A stretch of 64,000 bases of DNA, taken from Eledone cirrhosa (taxonomy: Eukaryota). The stretch's first letter is position 1. Each line of letters opens with the position of its first letter. A program made the translations under genes and the position numbers. Positions 2,468 through 53,700 of the stretch are shown here, one piece after another. Location of the stretch: positions 6,448,001-6,512,000 of the forward strand of contig OZ024744.1 in the NCBI GenBank assembly GCA_964016885.1. Reading direction: 5' to 3'. The notes beneath the pieces are model-generated. The model searched no databases and had not been told where the DNA came from. It was given only the letters and a program-made list of their open reading frames with translations.

Positions 2468-5400
2468 TGTCATCAAGGTAAATAAGGAGTCCATCTACCC
2501 CAGTTCCAGAACAAACTTTCTAGATAGACTGCCAACCAAACCTAACAGAACCTTTCTTATACACTATTAGATGGACGTTCAGTCCCTTCAGTTCTTCCGT
2601 CTTTGATGGATTTTGTTTTCTATCGTGCAGCCTGTCCATAAATCCCTTTTCTCACTAAGCATGCTTTGTTGGGTTGTCAGTTTAGTCTGCAACGATCCGA
2701 TCATGTGAAATGTATTGGGTTACATTTTATTAGTAGCACTTGAGTGCGTCTTGACACAAATATGTTTATTTGTATATATATCCCATTAATTCCAATTACT
2801 TTCGTCTTCTTGCCAACGTTAATGTTTTGTCTCTCATCCCTTACTCCACTGGATAGCGTTATGGCTTATGTCAGACGCTGTGACCCCAGGTGTACCAGCA
2901 GTGCTGTTGGCAGGGGTAGAAACTTCCAAAGTCCATCTCAACGGCTAAAGACCCTGGAGTTCTGTCTTTCATTTGTATTTTGATTTTTTAAAAATACTTT
3001 TTTATGGTTTCCCCTTTAAAAATTGTTTTTCATTTTACCTTGTTTTCCTTCCGTCTTATCTTCTCTTTGTTAATTTTTAAATGTATACTAGCAAATGGCC
3101 CCCGTCCATTGGACGGTGTTAATTCTTGGTAGGACTGCAGTCTTAATGGTGAAATTCCGTTTTGTCGATGTTTAACATGGAGGATAATTTTACGTGATCA
3201 ACTCTTTCAATAAAAAATGAGACGGTATTCAGAAAGAGCATGTTTTATTTACAGATATCTGTCATTAAAATGTGAAAATAGAGAAATATCGGAAATAGAA
3301 AATATCGTTTGGAATGTCGTTTAATTGACTGAATGGTGAAGAATCGGTACAAAAAGCTTAGACGACAGTTCGGTTGACATGAAGGCAATCTGTAAGAAAC
3401 TACATGTTTAATTGAATTATGAAATAACCTGGGGCATATGGAATGCTGTCCATTGAAATGAAAAATGGTTGATTTCATCAATGGGCATTTGTTGAAAGAG
3501 TAACGTTACCTATTGTGAAAAGTAAGTAATCGCAATAAGGACCAACCTGAAGGGGCTTTCAAGTTCACGGAAAAACTATTGGAGGGCTGCCTTGTAAACC
3601 ACATTTTTTGTAAATCTTCCGGGAGCGTGGTAAAAGAGATTGGCCGAGTTTCCAACTCTTGAACATCCCACATACAGTTGGCCGTGTGAAAAGCATGGCG
3701 TACTGATGTCCAGCCCAACCACTTTTAGTGACTGCCCCTGGGCTTTGTTAATTGTTATTGCAAAACTTAATCGAATGGGGAATTGGATTCTTTTCATCGG
3801 AAAGACACAGTCAGTTGGAATAAGTGGAACTCGGGAAATAAAAACAGAGTCGCCAGCGTCTTTTCCCGTAATGATTGTAGCGTCGAGAACGTCATCCAAC
3901 ATTTGCGTTATAACCAAGCGTGTGCCATTGCAAAGCCGAGGAGGTTCCAAGTTTCTCAAGAGTATGATGGGACTTCCAAATCTTAGGCAGAGTTTATGCG
4001 GTGGCATTCCCGATGGCTCTTGTGAGTTTAAAAACTCTGTTGGATAAAACGTTACTTGCGTCGGATCCGTAATCGAATCCATCGAAGCATAACATCGCTC
4101 TTGGGAAGGAAGTTGACGAAGCAGACATGTGTTAAGAGCTTGTACGGTGGAATTTGTAGGAGCTAAGATGGCCCTTTCACACATCCATTGATGACTGACG
4201 TAATTTGTTGAGAGGTCGGGGTAAACTCTTGTGCAAATATCCTCAGGGCTGGAGACGTAGTTACCGATGGTACTTATGTCAACCAAACCGTTTACGTCGA
4301 TTGGTAAGTTCCCATTACAAACATCCAATAACTTTGAAGTATAGTAATTGTCACCGTCTTGTTAGTGGAGAATCGATCGCATGTTGATGGTTAACTTTCC
4401 CAACTGGACGAAGCGCCAAAGTTGAGAATGTTTAATGCAAGCATCTATTTCATCAACTGTTTGGCCTTTTGGGATGATGGGAAGAGTTTGACGAAAGTCC
4501 CCAGCAAGAAGCAGAACGGCGCCACCGAACGGTTTAGAATTGGAGCGCAGGTCATGTAGCGTTGTATTGATTACATCAAGTGCTCTTGTTGGACATTGTT
4601 TCCTCGTCCCAGACAATCAATTTGCATTTTTGAAAGACAGCAGCCTCATCAGAATTCTTCTTTATATTGGTGGTCGAATTTTCAACATGACTGATGTTAA
4701 GGGGAAGCTTAAATGTTGAATGGACTGTTCTGCCGCCGTCTAGCACTGTTGCTGCTATTCCTGAAGACGCTATTGCAATGGCAATCTGTCCATGTTGGCG
4801 AACTTTGGCAAGAAGGAGGTTGAGGAGAATTGTCTTTCCTGTACCATCTGGCGCATCAAGGAAGTGGCTACCACCGTTGGTGTCTTCAAGCATGGTCAAA
4901 ACAAAAGTATAGACATCAGCTTGTTCAAGATTCAAAAGTTCTTCTCTTTCTTGAACATAGGACAGAAGCTTGGCAGCACCGTAGCATGTCTCCCTTAGTA
5001 GGGGGCGGTTACAAACAGCCTCATTTTCTCTTTTAGGGGATTCCATATAGTAGTTCTTCAAGGGACGGCCACCCATTTACAAAAGTATATCTTCTAGAAA
5101 TATGAGACCGCAATTGTACATTTCATGTGTAAACTGTAAATTCATGTCTGTGGACGCAAAGCGAGATTGCATTAGGATGTCCAAGCACAGGCTGTCACGA
5201 TATTTATCCCAGAAAGACTGTGGATTCCCAAGACTGCAGTATACCAGCATAACGGCGAAAATCTTACGAAGAGCAATTGGTGACTGCAACATTGATGCTT
5301 CATGGAGGGCGTGGTCATAGTGGTCATCATTGTCGAGAAGACCTAATTTGGAGCAGGCCTCTTTAAATGTTGAACAAATATGGCCATTGACGGTACGAAG

Positions 5401-6773
5401 GTCTTCAAAGGAAGTTGGACTTTTGACAACGTGCATTAGAAGACGAAGGTGAAAACATTCTGAATTGAGCGGGTGAACTGTGTACACTCTGGAGAGGGCA
5501 TCAGACTCACGCATCGAAGCATCTCTTTGTGAAATGCGTCCTCGCTTTCTTCTTTGCCAACAGCGGGAAGATTTATTCCACGTGTATAATGTAGACAACT
5601 CCGCATAAAGAAGTGTTCTGTTAAGAGAGTCAGAAGTACAAAGTTCAAAGAATCCGGTAAGGGTCGTTCTTCGGGGTTGTCTTGCACAGTCAAGCATATT
5701 TTCTTGGTTAAAATACACCCGTTGACCATTCTCCAAATGAACGCTGAGGTTCACGTTCATGGATCGGAAAACGGAATATGCGCCAAAATGCTTCGTTAGA
5801 AGAGATGTAGCGTCCAGTTTGGAAAAATGTGACTTCATCTGTGGCGGCATCAGGGTTATCGGTCTTAGCCAACTCAATAACTGCTCGATCGGCTCCCTTA
5901 TGAATATACTTGCAGATGTATTGGATTGATTTTACGGAGTTGCAGAATTCAACATTAATGTGGGCTGGAAACATTTTACAAAGCACCTTGTTATGTGGTA
6001 CAACGCATCGGTTGTCGATATTGAAATCTTGACCACCAACCATTGTTATAGTTGCCGTATGTCCACCCTCCTGTGGTGCCCAGCGACGGTATAAAGGGTA
6101 GCCATCATCACCAGTTTTGGTTTCATGAATAAGTTTACGTGGGTAACGCTTTGTACATTTCCCATTATCTATACATGCAGATTTTGGATTTAGGTGGCCA
6201 CACTGTCCATGGATCATGTTGGTTTTTATAATTTGAAAAAGGACAGGGTCTTCTTGGGGATTTGGCAATTTAGTACTTATAACGGAATCAACATCAGTTG
6301 ACATGAGCTTTTTTTGAAGACAAAGGAGAATATGGGCATGTGGGAGTCCTCCTTTCTGCCATTCTACGGTGTACATGAAACACCTTACTGGTCCAAAATA
6401 TTGTCCGTATTTTATAACATCCATCATTTTCATAAGTTTCAGGTGAAACACTATAGATGTGATATCATGCCTGTGTGAAGGATTTTGGCCATGAAGTAAG
6501 TGAGACTGGATGTCAAACCATTTTGGATTACATGTGAAGGTGATGAAAAGATCAGGACGGGCCATAATGGCGGACGTAGGTGAGAGCAACATGCATTTTT
6601 TCATGCATGTAACGGGGGCCTCCAGTGTATGACGATGGCAGAATGACAGAAAGCCCAACATCCGAAGCAATAACCTAATCATTTCGATTGATTTCGTCAC
6701 GTAGATTGTCGTATTCTTCTGAACGCAGTTCCTTTTGATCGTGTCTTATCCATTGGAGGCGTTCAGTGTCGAT

Positions 6774-6854
6774 CTGGAAAAGGAAGAAATTGTTGTGGTA
6801 AATATTGAGTGAACTGGCTAAGGAAATTTCTGAACGAAATCATGAAATAGTTAC
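6774..6854 (-). other. 81-nt GT-AG intron in the Helitron 1 Rep region
   Basis: aag|GTAACT...ttcttccttttcCAG|atc. Removal joins VDIFAK to IDTERLQWIRHDQKELRSEEY, a conserved Helitron motif. Confidence 0.8.
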
Positions 6855-7879
6855 CTTAGCAAATATGTCTACACAGTATTGATTGAGGAGCATCCGTGTT
6901 CCATGCAGAATGTTGGTATTGTTCTTGCGAACCATAAGCCGAAATGCATAAAATTCCATTTGTGAAATGGTTTTACGTGGTTGAAGATACATTAAAGTTA
7001 CCGGATTACACTTTGGCAAGTCAATGCGGTAGCCATCGTCGCCAAAGGGGAACAGTAATGGATATTGGAGGGCATTATATGCAGGATGAAGTTCATTTAT
7101 TTTTTGAAGACGCGAGTCCTGCCATTCAAGAACAATACCATGGTTTGAAGCACTCTCATTAGGACTTGTTATAAGCACCGCAACTTCATCGGTTTGGGGT
7201 CTGTTAAAGGAACCCCGATGCTGCCCTGGTGGAGCGTTGTCACCTCGAATGACAACCTTGACTTGATTGGTGTTAGCATCTCTACGCTGAAAAGCAGTTT
7301 TGAAAATGGCGACGTAGGGGTTTATGGTATGAAGCATATATTGAAGGGGCTGCAGAAGAAAATGTATTGTTCCTTTAGCAACTGAAGCTCTTCGTGCAGT
7401 TTCTTCAGGTCCGTTCCCCATAAAGTAAATCTGGAGAAAACTGTGTTCATCGCCATCTTGTGGAATAATGGAGCCAATTTGATGGTAAATTTGACCTTGC
7501 ACTTTGAATGTGGGCATATAATTTCCATGTTCTATTGGTGTATGACCAAAGCTTGTCATTTGGAAAGCCGAATTGTAGGCTCTTATATTTCTAAGAAAGT
7601 GTTTAGAATCAGGGTGGTCTCCAAGCAGCAGAAAATTCAAAGGTTCGGCACCGACTTGTAAATGAGGCAATCTAACCGTTCCATTGGAGAAGCATATACC
7701 GGTAGATTCTGCTGGCCACCCCATTTCGTTACAGCGGACGCAAACAGTTGACATGCTACCAATGATGACATGTAGTCCTCTTGGAGGCTGTAATGAAAAG
7801 CCTTTTTAGACCAGTAACAGGAAGAAACCATCGGAAAGACATGAGAACGCATTTTCCGTTGAGAATCAGCCGCAATCCT

Positions 7880-8190
7880 TGTTGCCCTTTGGTCAACAGT
7901 CTCTAAAGCACGGCTATTTGAAGTAGAAGCAGCATTGCGAGCACGCCGGAGTTCTGCTTGTTCAGCTTTCTGTAATGCTCTGATGTTCAAAGTAGAGGCA
8001 GCATTGTGAGCACGCCGGAGTTCTGCTTGTTCAGCAGTCAGTAATGCTCTGGCCTTCGAAGTAGAAGTAGCATTGCGAGCAAGCCGGAATTCTGCTTGTT
8101 CAGTTGTCTGTAATTCTCTGGTAATCAAAGTAGAAGCAGCATTGCGAGCACGCCGTAGCATACATTGTTCTTCTGTCTCGCTTGCGCGCA
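7880..8190 (-). repeat. 60-bp (20-aa) coding tandem repeats in the Helitron 1 N-terminus
   Basis: EQAELRRARNAASTxxxRAL-type units about five times. Confidence 0.85.
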
Positions 8191-8396
8191 AAGAACGCAA
8201 AGCAAAAGCTTATCTTGTTTTTCTTCCAATGTGACTCTTGCTTTCTCGAGGCATTTTATGGAAAATCTGTAATTGAATAAATCTGAAACAAATTAAATCA
8301 AAGAAATTTACCTGGTTGCTGTTTATAGGACTTCTAATGAAGATTTTGAATGCAAAGTCCCATAAGGATTAGAAAAATGGCGATATATATATATAA

Positions 8397-8896: not shown

Positions 8897-9854
8897 CTTT
8901 TTTGTTTGTCTCTTTCTTTCTGTCGCTGTTTCCCTCCTATATTCTCTCTCTTTCTTTTCTGTCCCTCTCTCTCTCTTCTACTCTGCACTTTCTACTTCCT
9001 TCTCTTTCTCAACCTCGTTCCCGCTTACGGCAGTTCTAATGGAGATTTTTTAACGCAAAGTCACACAAGGATTAGGAAAATGGCGATTATCACTTTGAAA
9101 GTAACAATTATGCAATTCCTAGCTGTTATTGACACGTCTCGCATCATCCTTTGGAGCGAGATCGGGTGAATAATACGCAAGTTATAATACTTTACACACA
9201 CAGACAGAACGGTACTTATATAGTAGATGACGGTCGGTGACCAAAGACAGTCGCATCAATATTTTTATGATGCTGTTTGTCCATAATTTTCATTGGGGAT
9301 AAAATAAAGTCGCTGGGATCCGAATCCCTGTCCGACCATTACTCCTAAGCTGGTTACAGAGCGGCAGCTTATCCCCCGCCATAACAAGGATGAAGCCGTT
9401 GACCATTTGAAAGGTAAACACGTGGGGTAGTCACTCCACCATTACTACTGCATTGGAACCCGCTGGCCGGCTGAGAACAAAATACCTGTTGATGAAATGG
9501 CAGCCTTGTTCGATCCTTATACTAAAAGCTTACAACGAAAGCAGGCAGTATAATTGATGTAGTGTCACAGAAACCTCCCACTGGATTCTACCAATAATTT
9601 CCAGGAAATCGAGGTAAATTCTTTTGTTAACCTGTTTAGCTTGCTTCGTTTTTTTGGCTCCGGTGGCTGATAGATTCACGACCACCGCTTTCAATTTGTC
9701 TGGCCTCTATAACGTATGCTAATTGCTCTGGTCTTCTTTTAGTCCATTGAGCGTTTGCCGCTTATCTTGAAGATTGCGTTTCGCTTTGTTTTTGGCCGCT
9801 GCAAAAATACGATTTCGCTGAAATTATATTTGTATATATATATATATATAACAT

Positions 9855-10435
9855 TAAATTAAGGGTTGTGATGTCTGAGAGACATGCGCCATATCCACTG
9901 CAGAATAAGCTCAAAGATTCCAATGAATAGATCCGAGCATCTCATATCAACTAGAAATAGATTGACATATATATATATAAAATAAACATGTGGATATGGC
10001 GCATGTCTCTCAGACATGACAACCCTTAATTTATTTTTGGATATATATACGGCCCCTTAATTGTAGAGCTAACTCAGTTGAATGAACTCGGCTGCTATTT
10101 CTAGCTGTCGATAATCCTATTCACGTTTATAATACAACACGTAGTTCGAGTCATTCACAGATTTGCATTTGCTTTGTAAACGCAGATAGTTGTATCTTCT
10201 CCTTTGGTGGTCATCCAGGATGATTTACTTATTAATTGGTGAAATATATTTTTTATTTAAAGAAATATATACAAAGGAGATTAATCATTTTAAAAGGTAT
10301 CTACATTTTAAGTTCTAGTTAAACTTTAATTGGTTACCTACTTAGCTATGTGTGCTTACATACTTTACAAATTATTGTGATTGTTCCATATGTTTATTTT
10401 ATATATATATATGTCAATCTATTTCTAGTTGATAT
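9855..10435. mobile_element. Non-coding HHR element B (about 491-nt unit): plus-strand body 9990-10435 with inverted arm 9855-9989
   Basis: The reverse complement of the arm reads from the body's 3' end (atgtttatttt...ctagttgatat) through 45 extra nt into the body's 5' start (gtggatatggcgcatgtc). Confidence 0.75.
10198..10280 (+). ncRNA. Hammerhead-like fold with swapped G3-C8 core (GTGGTCA)
   Basis: 9-bp stem I tctcctttg/caaaggaga, stem II base cca/tgg, GAAA-tatattt...aaatata-TA. Confidence 0.55.
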
Positions 10436-10610
10436 ATATATCTATATTTGTTTTGCAAGGTTTTTGATATGTAATCGTGTGTCGAAACAAATATTGTTAT
10501 ATTTGGGGAGGGTCATATTGTTGTAATATTGCCAGAACACACTCATTGTTTGGTTGGTTCTCGCTTCTGTATAAACATAAATTGCACAAAACTTTCCTGT
10601 ATTACAGCCC

Positions 10611-10881
10611 CACGTTATACCCTAACGGATAGTACGATTTATACGTGGATATTTTACGTCTTGATGTGGGAGCTAAGTATGTTTTGTTTATACCTTTACT
10701 TATTTGCATAGCGAACGTTTCCACGAACCAAAGTATCGTCTTCCTGTCTTCCTCCGGTTGCAACGTTTTTTGAAATATCCACTTCTGCGTTTACAGATTG
10801 ACTTTGTTAGTTTCAGAAGATCCCGTTAAGGGTGAAAGCAGCGATTCTTTGCTTAAACTTTAATCTGTTATTTTAATAAAT
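10611..10881 (+). mobile_element. Internally deleted 3' fragment of the Naiad family at 60430-62136
   Basis: 10611-10710 matches 60948-61050; 10720-10881 matches 61977-62136. Confidence 0.75.
10809..10859 (+). ncRNA. Type-I hammerhead, U4A variant core (CAGAAGA)
   Basis: agttt-CAGAAGA-t-ccc/ggg-t-GAAA-gcag/ttgc-TT-aaact. Confidence 0.6.
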
Positions 10882-10887
10882 ATATAT

Positions 10888-11650
10888 ATATAAGTATGTA
10901 CACGTACATACATATATGTATACCGACGTACAGTAGTATGTATATATATATATATACATACATGCACACATATATATATGCACGTATGGATTCACCGAAC
11001 ATTTATTATAATGCTCGGTGTGTTTGTAAACAAACATCCCGTATTAAGCCGTAGTGTCTAGCAACCACCATACGTGCATATATATATGTGTGCATGTATG
11101 TATATATATATATACATACTACTGTACGTCGGTATACATATATGTATGTACGTGTACATACTTATATTTAAGTAACAGCCGTACTAAGAGTGAGAAATGA
11201 AATATCGTTTCATTTTTTCCGTTTATCGTTTTCGGTGCACCCGGCCAATTAACCCACTCGATATGCAAATTGGGCTACTCAGCCGTTAATATGCATAAGG
11301 TAAGTATATACGTTCAACAATCTGGCAGGAAGGTATACGTTGCTGACGATAGCTAACAAGCTTGAAACTAGTACAGCGTTCCTTTGTCAGTGTTGAACAA
11401 ACGAGCAACGGTGGTTGCTAGACACTACGGCTTAATACGGGATGTTTGTTTACAAACACACCGAGCATTATAATAAATGTTCGGTGAATCCATACGTGCA
11501 TATATATATATGTGTGCATGTATGTATATATATATATACATACTACTGTACGTCGGTATACATATATGTATGTACGTGTACATACTTATATTTAAGTAAC
11601 AGCCGTACTAAGAGTGGGAAATGAAATATCGTTTCATTTTTTCCGTTTAT
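10888..11650 (+). mobile_element. Non-coding HHR element C (422-nt unit), 1.4 units (11068-11650) plus inverted arm 10888-11069
   Basis: catacgtgcatata recurs at 11069 and 11491. The arm is the reverse complement of about 11410-11590. Confidence 0.85.
11322..11390 (+). ncRNA. Minimal type-I hammerhead ribozyme
   Basis: cgttg-CTGACGA-t-agct-aaca-agct-t-GAAAC-TA-GTA-cagcg, with extended stem I ctggcagg/cctttgtcag. Confidence 0.85.
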
Positions 11651-19389: not shown

Positions 19390-21560
<2,171 letters not shown>

Positions 21561-21561
21561 A

Positions 21562-28817: not shown

Positions 28818-29827
28818 TCAAGGCGGTTGATTTCTCATAGGAGTGTCAATCCAGTTACAGATCAGGTGCGGTCTCAGATGAGGACAGCATCTGAAGATCT
28901 CAGTCTTTGAATTAAGGCAAGCGGAAGTGTCTCTCAAGTTTAGCAAAATCCTATACTTTTCTGTGGTACACAAAGAACAATTCTTTGTGCCCCTTTGGTA
29001 CTCCCTCGAATGGTCTAATATAGACCAATCAATAGAGTACGGGATGTTACTATCCTTGAGTTCCCACACCTTACTTGCGAGGGCCGTTGATGTTCGTTTA
29101 TCGGAGTGCTTAAAAGAAGCGACATGTGAGTAAAATCTGGTTTTAAACCTGTCCTGGGTCATACCGACATATCGCTCACTCCTGGCTGGCTGGTTGTTGA
29201 TTACTGGTGTTATCGTAGCCTCATAAACGACAGATTTAGTGTTACATCTACCCTGCAATGGGCGTTCGTCCGGCTTCCTGCAACTGCATCCTGGATTTAT
29301 TCTCGTCCGGTTTGAGCTGGTGATTTTGGACTTCATAGATGGGCAACAAGAGTAGCTGATCTTGACTACGTTCCTATTAAATATCTTATAGTATCTATGA
29401 TTAGGAGGAAAATGTTTGTCTAATAGTTCAAGGAATTTCCTTCCTACATTAGTTTTGACAGTTAGAGAGAAGGGGGATGTGAACCAAATAATCTTCCTTT
29501 TCCTGTTATTGTGGTTAGTTTTAGGGGGGGGGGAGTAGGTAAATAAGACATTTTTTTCTGTAAAACCGCTGTTCTTAAGGGCTTTATTATAATAAGGGGC
29601 GGCTTTATTAAAAATGTCTATAGACGAAGATAAGGTAGAAATCCTACGGCTAATGTTAGGAATAAGATTATTAAAAACTATAGGGGGATGGCAAGACTCT
29701 TTGTGTATATACCTAAGATTTTCGTTAGGTTTATGGTAGGGTTTAAAAGAGGCAGTAAGTAAATCAAGATTAATATCAAGAAAGTTAGCATTAGTAAGGT
29801 TCGTATCTATAGTAATTTTAAGGTTAA
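28818..29827 (-). pseudogene. Inverted copy of the Naiad RT thumb + GIY-YIG region
   Basis: 339-aa ORF nearly identical to the C-terminal half of 29850-31972, lacking the insert and the frameshift. Confidence 0.9.
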
Positions 29828-29849
29828 AATCGAACAAGTCGTTAAAAGA

Positions 29850-31972
29850 ATGAGATGGAAGGCAATGGTTTACGACGGACTATTCAGGGCTGATACTAAA
29901 GATCGTTTTGACATCAAATCTCGTAAATATCCACCTAGAATTAAAGACATGGCCAGCTTCGAATTAGACCTCGTTAATCTAATTAATGATATCAAGTTTC
30001 GTAAGTACAATAATAACTTTCAAACCAAACTTTCTAACGGTATTTCTAATTTTAGAAATTCTACAAACACTTTCGTTCTTTCTGATAAAACTAAAAACCT
30101 CTTTGAAGTTAATAGTACTTTGTATAACCAACTTTTAACTAATAGTATTACCAATAAATATCAATTAACTAATAATAATACCTACAATACTATCAATAAA
30201 GAAGCTAAAGAACTAGCTAGTTCTTTACAAATAGATAACCGGATTGAAAGTTTAGCTAAGCGTAAAGAATCTATTACCCTTAAAGACCATAAATTGGACT
30301 TTACTAATCGACCTAGTTGTAGATTGATTAACCCGGCTAAATCCGAGGTTGGCCTTGTAAGTAAGAATATCTTAAGAAAAATAATTCTCCAAATCAGAAC
30401 TAACACTGACCTATCACAGTGGCTAAATACTTCCTCTGTTATTTCTTGGTTCAATAATATACAAGGTAAAAATAAGTGTAGATTTACCCAGTTTGATATT
30501 GTCGATTTTTACCCTTCTATTACTGTTTCCTTATTAACTAAGGTCTTAGATTTTGCAAGACCCTCCATTAATATTTCTAAATTAGAAGAAGACATTATCT
30601 TCCATGCTAGAAAAACTTTACTTTTTACTAATGATAATATTTGGGTTAAAAAGTCAAACCCTGAAAACTCTTTTGATGTCGCAATGGGTTCATATGACAG
30701 TGCGGATGTGTGTGACGTAGTTGGATTGTTCCTTCTCCACACCCTCAAAGAGAAATTTCCGTCCCATAATATCGGTTTATACCGTGATGACGGATTAGCA
30801 GTTTCTCATACCACCAACGGCCATGACCTTGATAAATTCCGTAAAGATTTAATCAATACTTTTGCTAATCTTAACCTTAAAATTACTATAGATACGAACC
30901 TTACTAATGCTAACTTTCTTGATATTAATCTTGATTTACTTACTGCCTCTTTTAAACCCTACCATAAACCTAACGAAAATCTTAGGTATATACACAAAGA
31001 GTCTTGCCATCCCCCTATAGTTTTTAATAATCTTATTCCTAACATTAGCCGTAGGATTTCTACCTTATCTTCGTCTATAGACATTTTTAATAAAGAACAA
31101 TTCTTTGTGCCCCTTTGGTACTCCCTCGAATGGTCTAATATAGAACAATCAATAGAGTACGGGATGTTACTATCCTTGAGTTCCCACACCTTACCTTATT
31201 ATAATAAAGCCCTTAAGAACAGCGGTTTTACAGAAAAAAATTCTTATTTACCTACTCCCCACCCCCTAAAACTAACCACAATAACAGGAAAAGGAAGATT
31301 ATTTGGTTCACATCCCCCTTCTCTCTAACTGTCAAAACTAATGTAGGAAGGAAATTCCTTGAACTATTAGACAAACATTTTCCTCCTAATCATAGATACT
31401 ATAAGATATTTAATAGGAACGTAGTCAAGATCAGCTACTCTTGTTGCCCATCTATGAAGTCCAAAATCACCAGCTCAAACCGGACGAGAATAAATCCAGG
31501 ATGCAGTTGCAGGAAGCCGGACGAATGCCCATTGCAGGGTAGATGTAACACTAAATCTGTCGTTTATGAGGCTACGATAACACCAGTAATCAACAACCAG
31601 CCAGCCAGGAGTGAGCGATATGTCGGTATGACCCAGGACAGGTTTAAAACCAGATTTTACTCACATGTCGCTTCTTTTAAGCACTCCGATAAACGAACAT
31701 CAACGGCCCTCGCAAGTAAGGTGTGGGAACTCAAGGATAGTAACATCCCGTACTCTATTGATTGGTCTATATTAGACCATTCGAGGGAGTACCAAAGGGG
31801 CACAAAGAATTGTTCTTTGTGTACCACAGAAAAGTATAGGATTTTGCTAAACTTGAGAGACACTTCCGCTTGCCTTAATTCAAAGACTGAGATCTTCAGA
31901 TGCTGTCCTCATCTGAGACCGCACCTGATCTGTAACTGGATTGACACTCCTATGAGAAATCAACCGCCTTGA
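29850..31972 (+). pseudogene. Naiad-type PLE RT + GIY-YIG ORF (5'-truncated, frameshift near 31240)
   Basis: CRLINPAKSEVG, FDIVDFYPSI, AMGSYDSA and GLYRDDGLA (RT). CSCRKPDECPLQGRC linker. VVYEA...YVGMTQDRFKTRFYSH (GIY-YIG). CSLCTTE. Confidence 0.92.
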
Positions 31973-34720: not shown

Positions 34721-37700
34721 TTTTAAAGAGAAAACAACGTAGCACGAAGCCCCCAAAACATTTATTTTTAATCATAAGAAGTATGTGTTGTTCGATTAAA
34801 AACGGTAAAATGTTATGGCATATGAAAGGTGAATGAGTGTAAAAGTGTGACGTTGACGCGGTGAAGCTCCAAACGCGAACTATGCCACAAGGAAGTCAGC
34901 AGCCCAAAAGTGAGTCACATGGAATTTATGACAATAATGTAGGATGTTTGGCAATTCAGGGACTGAAGTCGTTGCGGGATGACGGAGATAATGTATGACG
35001 ACTTTGAGTGAAAGGTACAAATGAGGGGGGTGCCATACGTTTGCTACAGTAGAAACATGTAAATTGTTCGTTATGCATTGCGTATATGTAGGCATTCTAA
35101 TGATTTATTTAGTTTGAAATGCTTACCATTCTGTATAGCTGTGGCAGCCAATAGAAACTGTGACGTTGCTTTCCTTAGACTGATTGCAGTGACATAGACC
35201 AAACATGAAGGACGCTCAAAATTCCCCAACACAAATTCTGCACCAACCTCGATTGCAAAAGTAACAGAGAATAACGAATAGCGATTATTACGCCAAAAGA
35301 AAAATGCTGAAGCAACTTCTATTGCACGAGATGCAGGAAACGAAACACAACGTTCGATGCGACAACAAATAAATGATGAGGCAACTGCTGCTGCTTGAGG
35401 TGTAGAAAACGATTCTCAACCCTCACTACGACAGAAAACAAATATTGAGGCAACGTCTATTGCAGGAGATGCAGAGAACCACAGCGTTCATTACGGCGGC
35501 ATAGAAATGCTGCGGCAACCTCCGCAGCTCGTGCTGCATCAACCGAAACACAGCGTCAACTGCGGCAGCAAAGAAGTGTGAGTCAACGTCTTCTCTTTGA
35601 ACTGTATCAACCGAAACACAGCGTCAACTGCAGCAGCAAAGACATGTGAATCAACGTCTGCTGCATGCGCTGGCGAATCCATGGAAAACTGGCTCAACCA
35701 ACCAGGGGGGAACGTGCATTTCAATACATTGTAGCTCAAAGTGGTCACAAGGTTTACAGTCGAAAAGTATGGTGCTATGAATTTCAAAAAGGCAGTATGT
35801 CTACAATTTGGTAATTATTGAAAGCAGCGAGGTATTTGATTGTTAGAAGACGGTTTGTGTCGCAGTGTTGATTACAGAACTTCTTGGTACACAATGTTTG
35901 TGGGTTTACCGTTTGGAGCAAATGCATAAAGGTTTCTTTTGCTTCCCACTCTGGAACATCCAACGTATAGCTGACCGTGTGAAAAGCATGGCTCTTCTAG
36001 GTTTATTCCCGCGACGGACAATGTTTGCCCCTGAGACTTATTTATCGTCATAGCGAAACTACAACGAACTGGAAACTGGAGCCTCCTAAATGCAGAGGGG
36101 ATCTCTGATGTTGACGGACAAAGGGGAATCCTTGGGATTAAAACATTTTCCCACTTTCCACACCCCGAGAGACTCGTCGCCTCGATCAAGTTTTGCGTTA
36201 GTTTATTTACTGTAAGGCAGAGATATGGTTGGTGTAGATTCCTCAAAAGCATAATTGGGCATCCTTGCTTAAGTTCCAATCGATGAGATGGCAACACGGT
36301 GGGGTTCAATGAGTTAACAAACTCAATTGGGTAGTTAATGGGGTCTTTGACTGTATCGATGGACTTGTATGTACACGAAGCTGTAGGAAGAGACTTAAGC
36401 CGTTGATTTTGTTGACAGCCTCATTTTTCAGAGCCAGTATTGCCCTTTCGCACAGCCAGTTTGGAATTTGGTAGTTAGTGCTCATCTCAGGGAATACTGC
36501 ATCTGTCAAGTCGTCAGCACTGTCGACTAAAGTGCAGACCGGTTTGGGGGAGGTTTTTTCCTCTTCATCAAGTGGCACTTTGCCGTTCCCTACTGTCAAT
36601 AGGTTGATAGCAAACTCTGATGACACTTGGTCACCAAGCATCCGAGCTCTCATGTTCGTAGAGAGCGTTAATGTTGTGACATATCGCCAAAGCGGAGATG
36701 AATTTAAGCATGCTCGAATAGCATCAGCCCTTGTTCCTTTGGGAATAACAGGGAGGGTTTGTCTAAATTCTCCGGATAAAAGGACAGTCACGCTTAAAGT
36801 CCGTCCAGTGCCTCCAAAGCTCGTTTATGAGCCATGGTACATTCGTCCCAAACTATAACTTCACACCTTTTAAGCAGTTCTGCCTTTTCTGATCCTTTGG
36901 TAATATTACCGCAGGGTGTGTCATTTGCTGTCATATTAAGGGGGCGTTTGAAGGCTGAATATTCTGTCCTGCCCCCAGGAAGCAAGGTTGTTGCAATACA
37001 GGAAGACACAACAGCAAGTGCTACGTGTCTGTGTTGTCGAACCTTGGCAAGAAGAAGCCGTATGACAAAAGTCTTCCCTGTGCCTCCAGGGGTGCCCAAG
37101 AAAAAGATTCCTGCCGTACGACGGTGGACACAGTCAGCAATAGTGTTATATGCTCGTTCCTGTTCCTTCAGCAGCATTGGTTCATGTTCAGTGACATATG
37201 TAGCCAAGCTGTCAGTGTCGTAGGATAGTTCCCGAAGTATTTCTGCGGAAATGATGTCGGAGCCTGTTCTGTTGGTTTGGGGCAGGTCATATGTCTGCAG
37301 TGCATTCCCACCCATTGCAGCTATCATATTTTCAATTTCAATAAGTGCTTTGTTGTAGATTTCATCTGTGAAGCCTACTTCCATGTCAGGAAGTTGTAAT
37401 TGTGCTTGATGTCTGAAGTCCTCAGAGAAGTCATCTCTGTACTTGATCCACAAGAAGGAAGGATCGGGCAATTCAAAAATCTACAGTAAGACAGCAAAAA
37501 GCTTCCTAAGGCTGTGTGGAATTTGTGAAACAACTGCTTCTGCCAAAGTGGCATCCCACTGAGCACCATCTTCCAGTAGTCCACGCCTGAGGCAGGCCTC
37601 TCTGTACGTGTCGTCGCAAATTTGGCCATCAACAGTTCTTAGGTGTTCAAAACTGGTTGGTCCTCTTACGTCATGGAGAAGCATACGCAGGTAGTAACAT

Positions 37701-40700
37701 TCTTGGTAGATGAAGGGCTCTGTGTAAACTCGCGCCAGGTAGCTGTCAAAGTTAAAATCTGGATGGCCATCAACGCTTTCACCTTTGATTCTTGGCTTCC
37801 ATGAATACTTTTCCCATTTGTAGAAAGAGGGGACTTGGGGATACAGCAAAGTAAGAGCGAATGCGTCGCCTTGACATAGTTGAAAGAATGCAGTAAGAGC
37901 TGGTTGCAGAGCCCTCAGAAAAGCTGTTTGTTTTATATAGTACACTCTTTGACCGTTTTCAAGGTGCACAGCAAGGTGTTGGACGGCAGGGTATCTTCTG
38001 TGCATTGAGAAACGGTAAATTCGCCAAATTGCCTCGCTGGTACTTATATCGTGCTGATTGGTACTGTGCAACTTCATCCCGTTTGTTTCCTTCTTTAAGC
38101 CCGAACATGGCGGCATCCGGGCCCTTATTTATATACTTGCAGACATATTTGATTGATTTAATAGAGTAGAGTTGCACTATACAACATTTATGTGAGAGTT
38201 GAACGCCTTGAGTAGTAATGGGCAGTACGGTACAATCTATCGGTTGTCAATTTCATGTTTTCCAACCAGTGCTGTTAATCCTCCGTCCTCACGGCTTATT
38301 CGTCTGTATGATGGCTATCCGTCATCAGCAGTTTGAGTTTCGCGAAGGAAGGCTTTTTGGTATTCTTTGGAGCAAATACCGTTGTTCAAACACAGAGAGT
38401 TAGATTTGAACCCACGTCCACAAGGACCGTGAACCATGTGCGCCGTAACCCTGTCAAATAGGGTTTTGTCAGTTTGCGGGTTTGGAAGCTCTGCGGATAT
38501 AATCTTGTCGATGTCGTCTGCTCCGATTTTTGTCGACAACCAAATAAGAATGTAAGCATGGAGGATCCCCGCTTCTGCCATTCAATTGAGTACATGTAAC
38601 ATTGCACACGTCCAAATACCTGGCCCTTTGTGATAAGGTCCATTAGTTTGTATACTTTTAGCTCGAAGACTCTGGATGAGAGGTCATGGCGACCGCTGGG
38701 CTGTTGTCCTGGAAGGAGTTCATGGGCAATTTCTTGCCACGAAGGATTGTATGTAAAAGTAATAAATAGGTCTGGTTTTCCGTACTCGCGCACATACGTC
38801 ATTGCGTCCTGGGTTCTTTAATGCACACAACAGGGACTTCCTTCGAAGATTGAAGGTAAAATGCAAACTTTTCTAATGTTATCCGGGATTTCATTATTGT
38901 ACATTCCATCAAGTAGGTGAATGTAATCGTCGCAGTGTAGTTTTGTCTGGTTTAATCTTATGAGGCACAGTCGTTCAGTCTCCATTTTCGCGGCCATGTC
39001 TACAGCAAATTGGTTGAATAGTTGTTGTGAACGATGAAGGTGGTTAAAGCAGTTGTCGCAGACCATGAAGTGGTAGGCATAGAATTGCATGCAAGGACAC
39101 TGTCTTATTGGTAGGTTGGTCAGGTGCCAGTGGGTTGAACTGCGGAATTGTGGTGTGGTATCCGTTTTCACCACGTGGAAAGAGAAATGGATACATCAGT
39201 TCATCGTAGGATCTGTGTATCTCACTGATCCGTTGAAGGGTGTTGTCACGACGTTTAAGAACAACATCTCTTCTGTTGTGTTGATCACCATGGAGGACTA
39301 TAGCAACTTCATTGTATGCGGGTGGATTGTAGCGACCGGCATGCTCTCAGGGTAGTCTTTCTTCAGCATTGAGAACCTAGTTGAAGTTATTTAAAGGTGC
39401 ATTTTCCAGGGCGTATTTGAAGCTTAGCACGTAACTGTTGTTCGTATGTAGCATTTCTTGAAGTTCAATTAGCAGCTCTGGGTTGGTTTTGGGTGAAACG
39501 GCTTTCCGCCTCTCTGCCTGTTCTCGGTAGTCAGCAATAAAGTAAATCTGAAGGAAGTTATGCTCTGCATTTGCCACAGGTAAGAGTGATACGATCCTGT
39601 GGTAAACCTGCCCCTGCACTTTGAAAGTAAGCATAAATCCACCTTCATTGACAATGTTTGATCTGATGGAGGTCATTTGGAAGGCGCAGTTGTACTGACG
39701 AATTTCACGAAGAAATTTTCTTGACTCCGACGTCGCGCCTGTCAGTAGGAACTTCAACGGCTGAGAGGGATCCTGAAGAAGGGGCAGTTTGACTTTACCA
39801 TTGGCGCAGCACATTCCTTTAGCTTCCCCTGGCCATTTTTTAGCATTGCAATACGGGAAAATTGTAGACATAGTGCCAATTTGGATATCTGGATGCGTCT
39901 CATAACGTCATAGTTAAATGCCTTAAGCGACCACCGTGTTCTGCAAAGCTTTGAAAGACCCTGTGCAGAAGCTCTGCGACGTGCGTTCTCGCCCAGCTGT
40001 TGTTGTCGGTGTTCAACGGTTTCTCTAGCGCGTGTAGCGGAAGTTGATGCAGCATCTCTTTGTTGTCGCAGCAAACGTTGTGTTTCAGTTTCCGTAGCTC
40101 GTGTAATAGCAGTGGCCTCTGCATTTCTTTTCTGTCGAGGTGAGCGTTGAGCATCGTTTTCTGCATTTCGAGCAGCAGAAGTTGATGCAGCATTTCGTTG
40201 CTGTCGCAGCGAACGTTGTGTTTCGTTTTCTGCAGCTCGTGCAATAGCAGTTGCTTCAGCATTTTTCTTTTGGTGGAATAATCGCTTTCCCTTATTCTCT
40301 GAAGCTCTTGCAATCGAAGTTGAGGGAGCATTTCTGTCAAGTTGTTTTGAACGTTCTTCATCTTCAGTCGCAGCTCATGCGAGAGCTCTAAGGGAAGCTT
40401 CGGGAGTTCTTCTGGATTGAGTCATTTGTGGCGTTTCTTCCAACCGTCTTCTTTTGATTTTTAAAGCTGAAGCTGAAGATCTACCAAGTAGGCGTCTTTT
40501 TCGCCGTGGCATTGTATAATATGCGGAAGTAAACTTTTGCTGCAATAGAATTTAAATATGGTGAGAAGAAGTGACTTTGCCTATCGCAGAAGAAGTAGTC
40601 GTTGGAGGAAGGATTATTTATTCTAGTTCGTAAGAAAATAAGTAGTATGCCGATTATACTACTGGTAGGGGATGTAGAGCATTTTGTAACTAAATAACGA

Positions 40701-47794: not shown

Positions 47795-50700
47795 GTGAGG
47801 TTTATTTTACAAAATGAAATCGAACCGAGGTGTCCTACACGAGTGAAAGTATAAGGAAAAATGATGAAATCGAAAATGCAACTGGAGTCTTTTTAACATT
47901 TTTTAATAAAAAATATATATTTATTTGGTTCCTTTACCGGTTTCGCAGTTCTTCTACTTTTCAAAAGTAGAATCGAAATGGAGGGTTTGTGGTTTTTCTC
48001 ACACTGGTTGGTCTTTGTATGTTATTCCTGGAAAAAAGTGGATCGAAATGCCAGGCTTTTGGAGAAGTAATTTGGTTGGTTGGTGAATAAGTATAATAAA
48101 TTTCGCGCCAGTTCATGTTACAAGTTATTATATTTGCCTTGAAACAAAGGGCTCGGGTTATTTTTTCATATATGAGTGAAGTTTGGTTGGTTGATGCAGT
48201 CACGTGAATAAGCACATCAGCTTTCGCGCCAGTTTGTGTTTGAATTTCTTTTTACTTAAAAAAACCTGGCTGACGAAGGCTTTCTTTTGTTAAATGTAAT
48301 TTGATTGGTTATAAACGAAATTATGACTGCCACGAGAACAAGTACATTAAATTTCGCGCCCGCATTTTTGAATTTTTTTTATAGCCATTTAGAGAATTTT
48401 GTGCCAAACAAAAGATAATGGTCAAGAAAAAGGGATGGAGAGAGTTGTTCTGAATATGACCGATGTGCTGAAATGTAATCTGATTGGTTATAAATGAAAT
48501 TATGACTGTCACGTGAACATTAAATATTGCGCGCGTATTTGGGAATTTATTTTGTAACGTTTAGAACATTTTGTGCCAAACAAAAGATAATGGTCAAGGA
48601 AAATCGGATGGAGAGAATTGTTCTGGTTCAGTGAATATGGCTGGTGTGCTGGTGCCTTTAATTCTTGAAGTCTTTTATTTCACGTTTTATAATTGGAGAC
48701 AAATTCTTCTTGCTAGGTTAAAGGGATGTTCGTCTTCGTGTGCTTTGGATGGAGGTGGATAGCAGGTACTGTTCGGAATCTGTTGGTTTGTAGTGTATGT
48801 CAGTTTCAATATTTGTGTCTTTTTTAAAGATTATGATGTCCAGAAATGGGAGTTGATCTTGGCTGTATTCCATTGTGAATTGGGTGTGCTTATTGGTGCC
48901 GTTAATTAAATTTTTGAAATCATTTAGTTGGTCGAGTGTGTGGTACCAAAGAATGAGACAATCATCCAAGTAGCGTTTCCAATTCTCTGATAAATATTTG
49001 TGGAAGTTCAATCCGTATTTTGATTTGGACTGTTCATATATCTGGACTTCTAAAGACACAATAATAGTGTCGTTGTTGACATGTTTGGGGAGGTGGTTTA
49101 AGAGGTCCAGATCGTCTCTTACAAGGCTTGGTATGTGTTTGAGAATTGGTTTTAGTAGTATGTCTATAAAGTTGCTCAGTCTGTGTGTTTCACATTGTGG
49201 GCCCGCTACAATTGGTCTTAATTTAAGGTATGTGGGGTATTGTGTGTTCACGTAGGCTGAGGTGGATTGTTTACAGGCATCGTTAATTATTTTACACTTG
49301 TGGATCTTCGGAAGTCCGTAAAGGTTGCTGGTTTTGTATTCAAAATGTGTTAAATAATCGCGTTCCTTTTTAGTTAAGTCTTCCTGGTATCGACAAATCA
49401 GTGTGTTTAATCTGGTCATTGTTTTTGATTGCTGGTAGTTTTTTACTCTTTCATAGTAATTAGTATTTTGTAAGAGAGAGAACATAGAATTTTTATTTTT
49501 TCAGCCTCCATAATGACAACAGTACTTCCATTGTCCACTTCCTTAATTATAACGTCCGTATTGTTTTTTAGTTCATGGATAATCTCCCATTCCCTTCGAC
49601 TCGTGTTGGGTTTGGGTTTAGGTTGCGGTAGTTCATGGTATGGGAAAATAGCTATGTGGTCACAAAATTTGTCCAGAACTCTGTTTCTACCTTTTGTTGG
49701 GTTGTAGCTGCTTTTATTCCGTACAATTGGTTGGTCGTTATTCTCCTTGTAAAAGAATTCCCCTGTGAGACGTAATTTTCTACAGAAGTGTGAGATATCG
49801 TCATTTATCTCATTGAGATTAGAATATTGTGGTGTTGGTGTGAATATCAGTCCTTTGGATAGAGTTTTAATTTGTTGGGCTGAGAAGTTTGTATTTGAAA
49901 GGTTGATTATTTTCGGTTTTTCAAAATCGGTTTGTGCCACGGGTGTCGTGGGTCCTGTAGCCTTGGTCTACATTGTTTTTTCATGAATATTATTATATCT
50001 AATGGCATTTCCCCTGTCGTTGTGTGGTCTTGTATAGAAGTTTCGGACATATTGAGGTTCGGTTTGTTGATGGTCCGGGTTGTAGATTTTGTTCCTTTGT
50101 GTGGGTTGGGATCTACGATTTTGGAACAGGTTCTGTGACGGTTGGGTCTACGGTTTTGGAAAATGTTTTGTGTGTGTTGTGATATGCGGATCGGGTCCTG
50201 TCTTGTGTTGGCGGGACATTCGGTTTTTGTTAGTAGGGTTATAGTTTTGTCTATGGGTTCTGGGATTATCGTCATAGTTTTGCTGGGGGTATGTTGGACG
50301 TTTTGTTACTTTTTTGTTATTTGTTGTGCATGTGGTGTGTGAGTTTTAATTTGTTTTAAAAATGGGTTACCTGTATGTTGTTTATTTTTGAAATCCATTT
50401 CGTAGTTGTTGAACCAGGTGGCGTTTTGGTCCCATCGCTGGAGGGATGTTAGTTCTTCATCCTCACAGTTTTCTTTCCAAAGTTTGAATGTTTTTTCATA
50501 GAATAGGCCTTCAGAGTGCCTTGAGATTTCTGTTTCCATTTGTTGGTCGAGTGACTTGAATTTTTCTTTGTTGGAGTTGGCTCTTCATCGCAACAGTTCT
50601 ATTTCTATGGTAAACGTTTCTAACGCCATCTTTTCCCTAAGTTTTCTTGTTCATTTTGTTTATTCATGGATGGGTTTTATTTGGAGTTTTTTGGGTAGGA

Positions 50701-53700
50701 TGATTGAGGTAGAGTTTATCCACTTTTCATATATGTCTGCATTACCAATATTTTTTAAGAGATTCCAAAATGCGAAATTGCAGGCGGTTAGCTTTTGAGT
50801 CCATATATTGATTAGGGTGTTTTCAAGTGAGTTGTCATATCGTAGATTGGGTTCTAATGGTTGATTTTTAGATTTTGGAGCTTTGCTGTTTCAATGGTTT
50901 TGATTAGTTTAGCTAATGCTGGAGTAATATTCGTCTATTGGGTATTTTCTGCTTCTTCGTAGGGTCCTTTTTTATAAATATGTATTTGGTCCACTTTGTT
51001 GGTCACAATTGAAACTTTGGTGGAAATCTCTTTGAGTTCATTTAAGATGTCCTGGTTCAGTAAGTTGTCGTTTTGTTGAAACTTTGATGGCATTTTCGGT
51101 CTTCGTGTGGTGGGTATGCATTAGAAAGGGAGTTTATTTTTACAAAACGAAAACTAACCGAGGTGTCCTACACGAGTGAAAGTATAAGGAAAAAAGATGA
51201 AATCGAAAATGCAACTGGAGTCTTTTTAACATTTTTTTAATAAAAAATATATATTTATTTGGTTCCTTTACCGGTTTCGCAGTTCTTCTACTTTTCAAAA
51301 GTAGAATCGAAATGGAGGGTTTGTGGTTTTTCTCACACTGGTTGGTCTTTGTATGTTATTCCTGGAAAAAAGTGGCTCGAAATGCCAGGCTTTTGGAGAA
51401 GTAATTTGGTTGGTTGGTGAATAAGTATAATAAATTTCGCGCCAGTTCATGTTACAAGTTATTATATTTGCCTTGAAACAAAGGGCTCAGGTTATTTTTT
51501 CATATATGAGTGAAGTTTGGTTGGTTGATGCAGTCACGTGAATAAGCACATCAGCTTTCGCGCCAGTTTGTGTTTGAATTTCTTTTTACTTAAAAAAACC
51601 TGGCTGACGAAGGCTTTCTTTTGTTAAATGTAATTTGATTGGTTATAAACGAAATTATGACTGCCACGAGAACAAGTACATTAAATTTCGCGCCCGCATT
51701 TTTGAATTTTTTTTATAGCCATTTAGAGAATTTTGTGCCAAACAAAAGATAATGGTCAAGAAAAAGGGATGGAGAGAGTTGTTCTGAATATGACCGATGT
51801 GCTGAAATGTAATCTGATTGGTTATAAATGAAATTATGACTGTCACGTGAACATTAAATATTGCGCGCGTATTTGGGAATTTATTTTGTAACGTTTAGAA
51901 CATTTTGTGCCAAACAAAAGATAATGGTCAAGGAAAATCGGATGGAGAGAATTGTTCTGGTTCAGTGAATATGGCTGGTGTGCTGGTGCCTTTAATTCTT
52001 GAAGTCTTTTATTTCACGTTTTATAATTGGAGACAAATTCTTCTTGCTAGGTTAAAGGGATGTTCGTCTTCGTGTGCTTTGGATGGAGGTGAATAGCAGG
52101 TACTGTTCGGAATCTGTTGGTTTGTAGTGTATGTCAGTTTCAATATTTGTGTCTTTTTTAAAGATTATGATGTCCAGAAATGGGAGTTGATCTTGGCTGT
52201 ATTCCATTGTGAATTGGGTGTGCTTATTGGTGCCGTTAATTAAATTTTTGAAATCATTTAGTTGGTCGAGTGTGTGGTACCAAAGAATGAGACAATCATC
52301 CAAGTAGCGTTTCCAATTCTCTGATAAATATTTGTGGAAGTTCAATCCGTATTTTGATTTGGACTGTTCATATATCTGGACTTCTAAAGACACAATAATA
52401 GTGTCGTTGTTGACATGTTTGGGGAGGTGGTTTAAGAGGTCCAGATCGTCTCTTACAAGGCTTGGTATGTGTTTGAGAATTGGTTTTAGTAGTATGTCTA
52501 TAAAGTTGCTCAGTCTGTGTGTTTCACATTGTGGGCCCGCTACAATTGGTCTTAATTTAAGGTATGTGGGGTATTGTGTGTTCACGCAGGCTGAGGTGGA
52601 TTGTTTACAGGCATCGTTAATTATTTTACACTTGTGGATCTTCGGAAGTCCGTAAAGGTTGCTGGTTTTGTATTCAAAATGTGTTAAATAATCGCGTTCC
52701 TTTTTAGTTAAGTCTTCCTGGTATCGACAAATCAGTGTGTTTAATCTGGTCATTGTTTTTGATTGCTGGTAGTTTTTTACTCTTTCATAGTAATTAGTAT
52801 TTTGTAAGAGAGAGAACATAGAATTTTTATTTTTTCAGCCTCCATAATGACAACAGTACTTCCATTGTCCACTTCCTTAATTATAACGTCCGTATTGTTT
52901 TTTAGTTCATGGATAATCTCCCATTCCCTTCGACTCGTGTTGGGTTTGGGTTTAGGTTGCGGTAGTTCATGGTATGGGAAAATAGCTATGTGGTCACAAA
53001 ATTTGTCCAGAACTCTGTTTCTACCTTTTGTTGGGTTGTAGCTGCTTTTATTCCGTACAATTGGTTGGTCGTTATTCTCCTTGTAAAAGAATTCCCCTGT
53101 GAGACGTAATTTTCTACAGAAGTGTGAGATATCGTCATTTATCTCATTGAGATTAGAATATTGTGGTGTTGGTGTGAATATCAGTCCTTTGGATAGAGTT
53201 TTAATTTGTTGGGCTGAGAAGTTTGTATTTGAAAGGTTGATTATTTTCGGTTTTTCAAAATCGGTTTGTGCCACGGGTGTCGTGGGTCCTGTAGCCTTGG
53301 TCTACATTGTTTTTTCATGAATATTATTATATCTAATGGCATTTCCCCTGTCGTTGTGTGGTCTTGTATAGAAGTTTCGGACATATTGAGGTTCGGTTTG
53401 TTGATGGTCCGGGTTGTAGATTTTGTTCCTTTGTGTGGGTTGGGATCTACGATTTTGGAACAGGTTCTGTGACGGTTGGGTCTACGGTTTTGGAAAATGT
53501 TTTGTGTGTGTTGTGATATGCGGATCGGGTCCTGTCTTGTGTTGGCGGGACATTCGGTTTTTGTTAGTAGGGTTATAGTTTTGTCTATGGGTTCTGGGAT
53601 TATCGTCATAGTTTTGCTGGGGGTATGTTGGACGTTTTGTTACTTTTTTGTTATTTGTTGTGCATGTGGTGTGTGAGTTTTAATTTGTTTTAAAAATGGG

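Follow-up and report, generated by a model that had tools for sequence, protein, structure and literature searches.

Element B, a repeat at positions 9839 to 10445 of the window (the whole 64,000-nt stretch of Eledone cirrhosa DNA analyzed here), is best explained, with a probability that we put at about three in four, as a decayed copy of a dispersed, non-coding repeat of ~538 nt that carries a hammerhead motif, with a G3-C8 pair in hundreds of copies, moved as a Penelope-type retrozyme, and kept the flip of its 3-8 pair through selection for cutting. The likely reason why the flip was retained is that copies left intact would still cut. The host genome (3.0 Gb) is rich in microsatellites, and the window carries, besides this single copy of element B, several remnants of Penelope-type open reading frames.

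Element B and its surroundings in the window

The element consists of a direct copy, the body, which contains the hammerhead, and of an inverted arm on its left:

9839..9994, minus strand: inverted arm, a 5'-truncated copy that runs to the long 3' end and into TA repeats (from sequence comparison)
9899..9943, minus strand: 45-nt linker that joins the unit end at 10435 to 9990, the first part of the 104-105-nt tail (from direct junctions in other loci)
9990..10445, plus strand: body (direct copy), closing at the short 3' end at 10435 plus a TA run
10176..10197, plus strand: 5' flank strand that forms ~20 bp with loop II in intact copies; most of the partner strand is missing from the window copy
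10198..10206, plus strand: 5' strand of stem I (double changes at four of nine pairs in alignment A1)
10207..10213, plus strand: core N3-A9, in the window copy G3 U4 G5 G6 U7 C8 A9; family GUGACCA, relatives CUGACGA and UUGAAAA
10214..10240, plus strand: stem II (U.U mismatch and CC(A)/(U)GG) around loop II, with 11 nt missing after ~10221
10241..10244, plus strand: GAAA box (G12-A15.1)
10244..10270, plus strand: stem III, 11 pairs, not of the short palindromic type
10271, plus strand: A17, with predicted cleavage 3' of the A (AUA), placed from the hammerhead consensus
10272..10280, plus strand: 3' strand of stem I
10281..10288, plus strand: 3' flank, with the potential to form 7-9 bp with the 3' part of loop II in intact B copies, a helix that is weakly supported across families

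Read on the minus strand from 9994 to 9839, the arm is made of 10385-10435, the 45-nt linker and 9990-10049, and so extends past 9855, where the sequence-only reading had set its boundary. The same reading used the linker to define a unit of ~491 nt and let the arm close a circle. The linker was borne out: a direct-orientation, head-to-tail junction, behind at least part of the body and with a linker of 40-50 nt, is present in 23 of the 59 other loci examined (some of which overlap), and because of these junctions a unit of the 491 type can be regarded as real in the sense of a tandem DNA junction, the circle itself going beyond a junction that is known from DNA alone. The length holds for the window copy (446 + 45 = 491 nt) but not for the family, in which the unit measures 530-546 nt (~538), and it is private to the window copy, the product of two deletions, one of ~38 nt near 10125-10131 and one of 11 nt after ~10221.

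The hammerhead-like fold that had been proposed was recovered, with a 9-bp stem I (10198-10206 / 10272-10280), GAAA at 10241-10244 and a stem III of 11 pairs, and none of 300 dinucleotide shuffles of 9855-10435 matched its quality. The clean three-way fold is partly due to the 11-nt deletion in loop II, which does away with the long helix that loop II forms in intact copies; lacking these nucleotides, the window copy folds as a plain junction in an energy model without pseudoknots. Both this deletion and the A6G change in the core are decay and not family traits, and the window copy, which as a predicted ribozyme is probably inactive, would be the wrong choice for an assay.

Several other mobile elements surround element B. 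At 10572-10900 (plus strand) lies a 3' end of an element that we take, from its motifs, to be Neptune-like; it is 91-96% identical to loci L151 and L152 except for the lack of ~740 nt, which are bounded by GT...AG in those loci, and is a spliced copy from which an intron of the 3' UTR was removed. A decayed hammerhead core with the same U-CC/GG-U stem II lies within it at ~10814. Inside the repeats at 10870-11600, a different family is represented at ~11337-11380 (plus strand) by a canonical minimal hammerhead with a CUGACGA core and a palindromic CUAG stem III; this family also has inverted arms in TA runs, and a related copy lies near 21120-21561. A large inverted Penelope-type insertion runs from 26389 (minus strand) to 34257 (plus strand), with reverse transcriptase and GIY-YIG-like frames at 28818-31972 and a CUGAGGA hammerhead at both ends. 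Three to four tandem units of 3334 bp at 47890-58188, with frameshifted reverse transcriptase-like frames on the minus strand, are probably another Penelope-like element. Two regions on the minus strand, 3576-8209 and 35872-40421, are presumably decayed Helitron-like helicase regions with 69-bp tandem repeats, and a decayed frame at 9200-9838 (minus strand), left of the arm, is presumably the C-terminal end of a non-LTR element protein, which it resembles.

The flipped 3-8 pair and its probable history

A genome search in which core positions 3, 7 and 8 were left free gave 489 matches, which were tallied by hand. The 3-8 pair is G-C in 387 of them, C-G in 50 and U-A in 7 (a Watson-Crick pair in 444 of 489), a wobble in 13 and a mismatch in 32, G-G occurring only once. 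These matches are most properly counted as related copies, which amount to about two compensated changes and not to hundreds. The inversion to G3-C8 that had been noticed in the window copy is thus a family trait, with homologous C3-G8 and U3-A8 copies at the same columns; in alignment A1, the pair is C-G in 21 copies, G-C in 13 and U-A in 3. The accompanying A6G is not: it was found in 3 of 100 among the listed matches chosen by their flanks, and the two GUGGUCA copies are not sisters in trees. Of the two cores between which a family consensus was expected to decide, GTGATCA and GTGGTCA, neither is that of the family; GTGACCA accounts for 74 of 100 among the matches listed (147 were chosen by flanks alone), and among 33 distinct copies selected for their similarity, GUGACCA likewise predominates.

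Stem I followed by CUGANGA is found 64 times in the genome versus 8 in the control, and 19 of the 20 CUGANGA loci fetched align to element B. Among the 489 homologous matches, the literal CUGANGA box is present in 50 and GUGANCA in 387, and it was correctly anticipated that standard searches would miss the element: no Rfam hammerhead was obtained at E values up to 10 for the window copy, an intact G3-C8 copy or a C3-G8 copy. The G3-C8 pair was previously a laboratory control, and its fixation in hundreds of copies implies that CUGANGA searches undercount ribozymes.

The other signature positions (U4, G5, A6, A9, GAAA, U16.1 and H17) have the expected base as the majority state in the family, and the window copy departs from it at A6. 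The old background also includes inserted copies whose 3-8 pair is mismatched, three with C.A (type CUGAAAA) and two with G.A, and three C3.C8 insertions lie near the base of the B clade. Inside the G3-C8 clade, shared variants occupy 2 of 52 columns of the core and stems and 35 of 424 columns elsewhere, i.e., they are not clearly rarer in the ribozyme. Mispairing of the core, either internally or with the bases in front of GAAA, is possible in G3-C8 copies. A derived GUGAACA subfamily (L097, L115, L248-L266) is rich in copies although the third pair of its stem II (A.A) and part of the near helix are gone.

The order of the core changes was addressed with trees from which the seven core bases had been removed, built on subsamples of 67 of 107, 70 of 130 and 76 of 181 segments, in which short alignments were dropped, common cores thinned and several decay classes left out. 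The G3-C8 copies form one clade, with support of 100/99 in the first tree and of 90/86 in a later tree in which the earliest GUGAACA copies are included. This clade arises among A8 copies, which themselves lie inside C3-G8 relatives, so that the order runs from C3-G8 on the outside through poorly resolved C.A, U-A and G.A copies to GUGAACA and then to a large GUGACCA clade (99/96), within which N7 changed again. The trees contain polytomies, support at the key forks is 80-90, and in the last tree the bootstrap was unsettled. A path from C-G through U-A to G-C, made of single steps through A8, fits the core-free tree and has moderate support. The three basal C3.C8 insertions make a route with G8C as the first step possible. 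This route was weakened when, among 30 basal-type copies picked blind to the core, 19 of the 21 parsed cores turned out to be G3-C8 already; since the basal copies are mostly G3-C8 and GUGAACA copies occur on the old background (8 matches), the route through A8 is favored.

Covariation of the 3-8 pair has been described in nature as U3-A8, in Cercyon (PMC4209133) and, as the only natural 3-8 covariant, in the available part of PMC3088659. The double change C3G/G8C partly restores the in vitro cleavage of a Penelope-element hammerhead (PMC11167929; see also PMC8495972 for laboratory rescue). The core change of element B is identical to the engineered one, with the difference that it is natural, has at least 387 genomic matches and has relatives that record the path towards it. 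There is no mention of G3-C8 in the available parts of two papers on hammerheads of Penelope-like element (PLE) pLTRs (PMC4209133, PMC8557442), and no natural G3-C8 hammerhead was found in the literature searched, mainly open-access papers.

The family unit, its ends and its insertion

A genome search with element B returned at least 59 matches from the 40 scored of 2316 candidates. The unit is non-coding, the longest stop-free frame in a sister unit being 74 codons, and in locus L013 two cores lie one unit apart. With the natural unit of L013 as the reference, ends were mapped for 140 segments from 61 loci. The 3' ends (n = 109) concentrate at two sites, with 37 in the bin 421-440 (~434) and 52 in the bin 521-540 (~538), and the distance between these fixed ends, the tail, is 104 nt. 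The 5' ends are scattered, and of 109 none falls at 261-280, the region of the predicted cut (268); 19 of the starts coincide with the unit boundary and probably represent junctions that were left unresolved. Among 90 loci searched with a strict motif, those with both ends scored combine a short and a long end in nine cases and never two short or two long ones. Terminal ends mostly enter TA repeats (at least three AT at 26 short and 24 long ends), and most of the 43 short sites listed as "other" are linker variants.

The insertions thus show partial tandems, inverted truncated copies and scattered 5' ends, mostly with 1-1.7 units per arm. In published work, Penelope-like insertions are recognized by partial tandems, a truncated copy in inverted orientation and a tail on one side (PMC8557442), and two start sites of reverse transcription would match the tail (PMC11167929). 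As copies pass through the cut site (twice in L013), the template must have been either circular or an uncut multimer, and the data fit both. Element B is likely a non-LTR retrozyme whose copies were made into TA repeats by a reverse transcriptase of Penelope type, probably that of a Neptune element.

Metazoan non-LTR retrozymes (PMC7229834; 10.64898/2026.07.22.740005), for which derivation from Penelope-like elements has been proposed, are like element B dispersed non-coding tandem units of low GC content with one type I hammerhead each, and the axolotl HHR_Amex2 (PMC7229834) has the same U.U at the base of stem II. The unit of element B (~538 nt) compares with 170-400 nt in invertebrates (PMC7229834) and with a range of 51-972 nt (10.64898/2026.07.22.740005). 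Unlike known retrozymes, element B has a G3-C8 core, an 11-bp stem III, a 30-nt loop II paired with the 5' flank and inverted arms. With PLE pLTR hammerheads (PMC4209133; PMC8557442) it has in common partial tandems, an inverted 5'-truncated copy, a tail at one end and microsatellite targets, whereas the tail of those elements measures 30-40 nt and not 104 nt, element B has no open reading frame, and PLE dimers swap through a short palindromic stem III that the element B family does not have.

An open reading frame-bearing autonomous element with the same end as element B was not found in loci L001-L186. A tblastn search with the Penelope-type frames of the window against these loci and six extended stretches retrieved neighbors, none of which has this hammerhead in a terminal position, and no autonomous element with a long-loop hammerhead was found in looking for such a partner. 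A Pfam search of the Neptune-like elements gave no match. Neptune-like elements of this genome do carry a terminal hammerhead whose stem II has the same U-CC/GG-U signature, but whose loop measures 5 nt and whose stem III is palindromic, and the supplement of Craig et al. 2021 flags an Octopus Naiad with half a core (PMC8557442). In the flanks of loci L002, L011, L012, L017, L031, L037, L041 and others, many unrelated hammerhead families lie within 1.5 kb of B copies; a long stem II and a palindromic stem III occur in these families, which have TA targets in common with the B copies.

The long loop II helix and a possible mechanism

Alignment A1 comprises 51 copies of four subfamilies. Of its structure cells, 86.8% are paired, compared to 38-44% with slid partners; in a shuffle control, which is inflated by relatedness, none of the 500 shuffles came up to three of the five measures, and the other two were beaten by 92 and 148 of 500. 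Pairing reaches 91% in stem I, 93% in stem III and 95% in the CC/GG of stem II. The three stems surround the core and the structure opens at stem I, as in a type I hammerhead. Stem II is made of a U.U mismatch and CC(A)/(U)GG, and its signature pattern is matched 224 times versus 86 in the control, a count unusable as a copy number; the pattern also led to further families whose loops differ. Stem III, with 9-11 pairs formed in cis, is not a short self-complementary helix; double changes were seen at one of its nine pairs. Loop II, ~30 nt long, forms ~20 bp with the 22-nt stretch that precedes stem I, with bulges that shift between subfamilies and double changes at 10 of 21 pairs. A minimal core CUGAUUA noticed inside loop II was rejected as it has no stem I.

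This helix was examined in one representative of each of 12 families, close subfamilies cross-pairing as expected. The duplex of loop II and the 5' flank has an energy of -13 to -23 kcal/mol, and in 11 of 12 families at most 6 of 500 shuffled flanks do as well. Several helix variants shared among copies within the G3-C8 clade are A/G changes opposite U that keep pairing on the plus strand only. The end of loop II can also pair with the 3' flank; this second helix shows double changes at three of seven pairs and is supported in 5 of 12 families. Having failed in the other 7, it was rejected as a general feature. In an intact B copy, a rod with both helices and the core held open has -31.7 and the plain hammerhead -25.0 in a model without pseudoknots.

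A helix from loop II to a flank has precedents in pseudoknotted hammerheads (PMC3088659), which have in common with element B a loop-to-tail pseudoknot, a very short stem II, U10.1-U11.1 and 3-8 covariation, their pseudoknots having at least 4 bp (5-6 in the tested cases) compared to ~20 in element B. U10.1-U11.1 and stems II of 1-2 bp are known from natural hammerheads (PMC3088659, PMC7229834). Extra helices that tie stems I and II are also found in type-SGC permuted hammerheads (PMC10085705), in which the blocks are permuted non-circularly, whereas those of element B follow the order C, G, S of an ordinary type I. No description of the long loop II helix was found in the hammerhead and retrozyme literature searched, mainly open-access papers, and the combination of a fixed natural G3-C8 pair with a readable history and a very long helix of loop II and flank in a retrozyme of a known kind appears to be unreported.

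The proposed cycle would begin with read-through of a tandem locus that yields multimeric RNA, in which hammerheads would cut after AUA to release a unit that would be ligated to a circle. A reverse transcriptase would then start at either 3' site and pass the former cut site, which would produce copies of more than one unit. As for the long helix, the unit would fold as a rod that keeps the CUGANNA half, looped out, and the half with GAAA and the cut site at opposite ends. The ribozyme would then assemble only between two copies, and the monomer circle would remain uncut; the helix, common to about a dozen families in this genome, may be a second way to stop a monomer circle from cutting itself. 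In Neptune-like elements, the palindromic stem III offers a known dimer route, whereas in the long-loop families stem III pairs in cis, a contrast that agrees with the two-copy mechanism.

We tentatively prefer this two-copy mechanism, at somewhat less than even odds, to an active ribozyme formed by one molecule, in which the near part of the helix would be a docking pseudoknot and the far part would melt or sit in an upstream hairpin, to zip up later as an off-switch in the circle. Such a ribozyme is a plausible, if doubtful, reading: loop-to-tail pseudoknots with stems II of 1-2 bp are common in natural hammerheads (PMC3088659), the helix directly abuts the ends of both stems, I and II, in those families that were examined, and stem III is long enough for a monomer. 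In the B and mid families, an upstream hairpin of the kind proposed can sequester the far strand of the flank, but in several others no such hairpin is evident. Moreover, the far part of the helix itself covaries (helix 1, four of seven pairs), and the helix-formed state lies below the plain fold in energy in 10 of 12 families, again in a model without pseudoknots. The geometry points in the same direction. An A-form helix of 20 bp spans ~55-60 angstroms, and 4-9 single-stranded nucleotides reach at most ~30-60 angstroms; the helix has 18-26 bp in 11 of 12 families, and in 7 of them only 4-9 nt remain for the way back to stem II. It is thus hard to combine the full helix with a stem II closed in cis, and its length looks too great for a single molecule to form both. 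A trade of halves between two copies would satisfy all covarying helices at once. The wider proposal that rod-type hammerheads of animal retrozymes cut through two copies swapped through stems I and II and not through stem III, and that in one such family the 3-8 pair walked from C-G through U-A to G-C under selection, is rather unlikely; if true, such a walk would document in the genome that self-cleavage is of importance to the mobility of Penelope-type elements.

Whether cutting matters at all bears on a further alternative, in which the ribozyme is a relic whose cutting is weak or not needed, the element spread through template jumps on tandem transcripts that had not been cut, and the flip hitch-hiked on the success of a source copy. 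The insertion of copies with mismatched 3-8 pairs and of the basal C3.C8 copies means that cutting may be dispensable, no 5' ends fall at the cut site, extra constraint within the G3-C8 clade is not significant, and one in vitro study found cleavage unnecessary for the insertion of a Penelope element, cleavage mutants inserting normally (PMC11167929). We nevertheless consider a relic improbable: the larger groups of copies (387, 50 and 7) are all Watson-Crick at 3-8, the positions U4, G5, A6, A9, GAAA and UA are without change at the subfamily level while N7 changes freely, and two successive compensations are unlikely to arise by chance. A family with matched, mismatched and flipped 3-8 pairs on a near-identical background, and with very different copy numbers, offers a natural test of cutting versus spread. 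A chance fold in AT-rich DNA, or a C/D-box snoRNA-like sequence in a MITE-like inverted repeat, would suit the AT-rich region, the inverted arms and one weak match to snR78 (E 0.79), but it is extremely improbable given the shuffles of the window copy, the canonical CUGANGA relatives with covarying stems, arms that are truncated unit copies and not terminal repeats, and a flip that destroys the box C look-alike; the covariation in A1 and in the 12-family helix test refutes it.

At least eight further families (L152, L159, L160, L164, L167, L174, L180, L185) share the U-CC/GG-U stem II, with a loop II of 28-44 nt and a helix between loop II and the 5' flank; one of them, L174, includes a U3-A8 copy.
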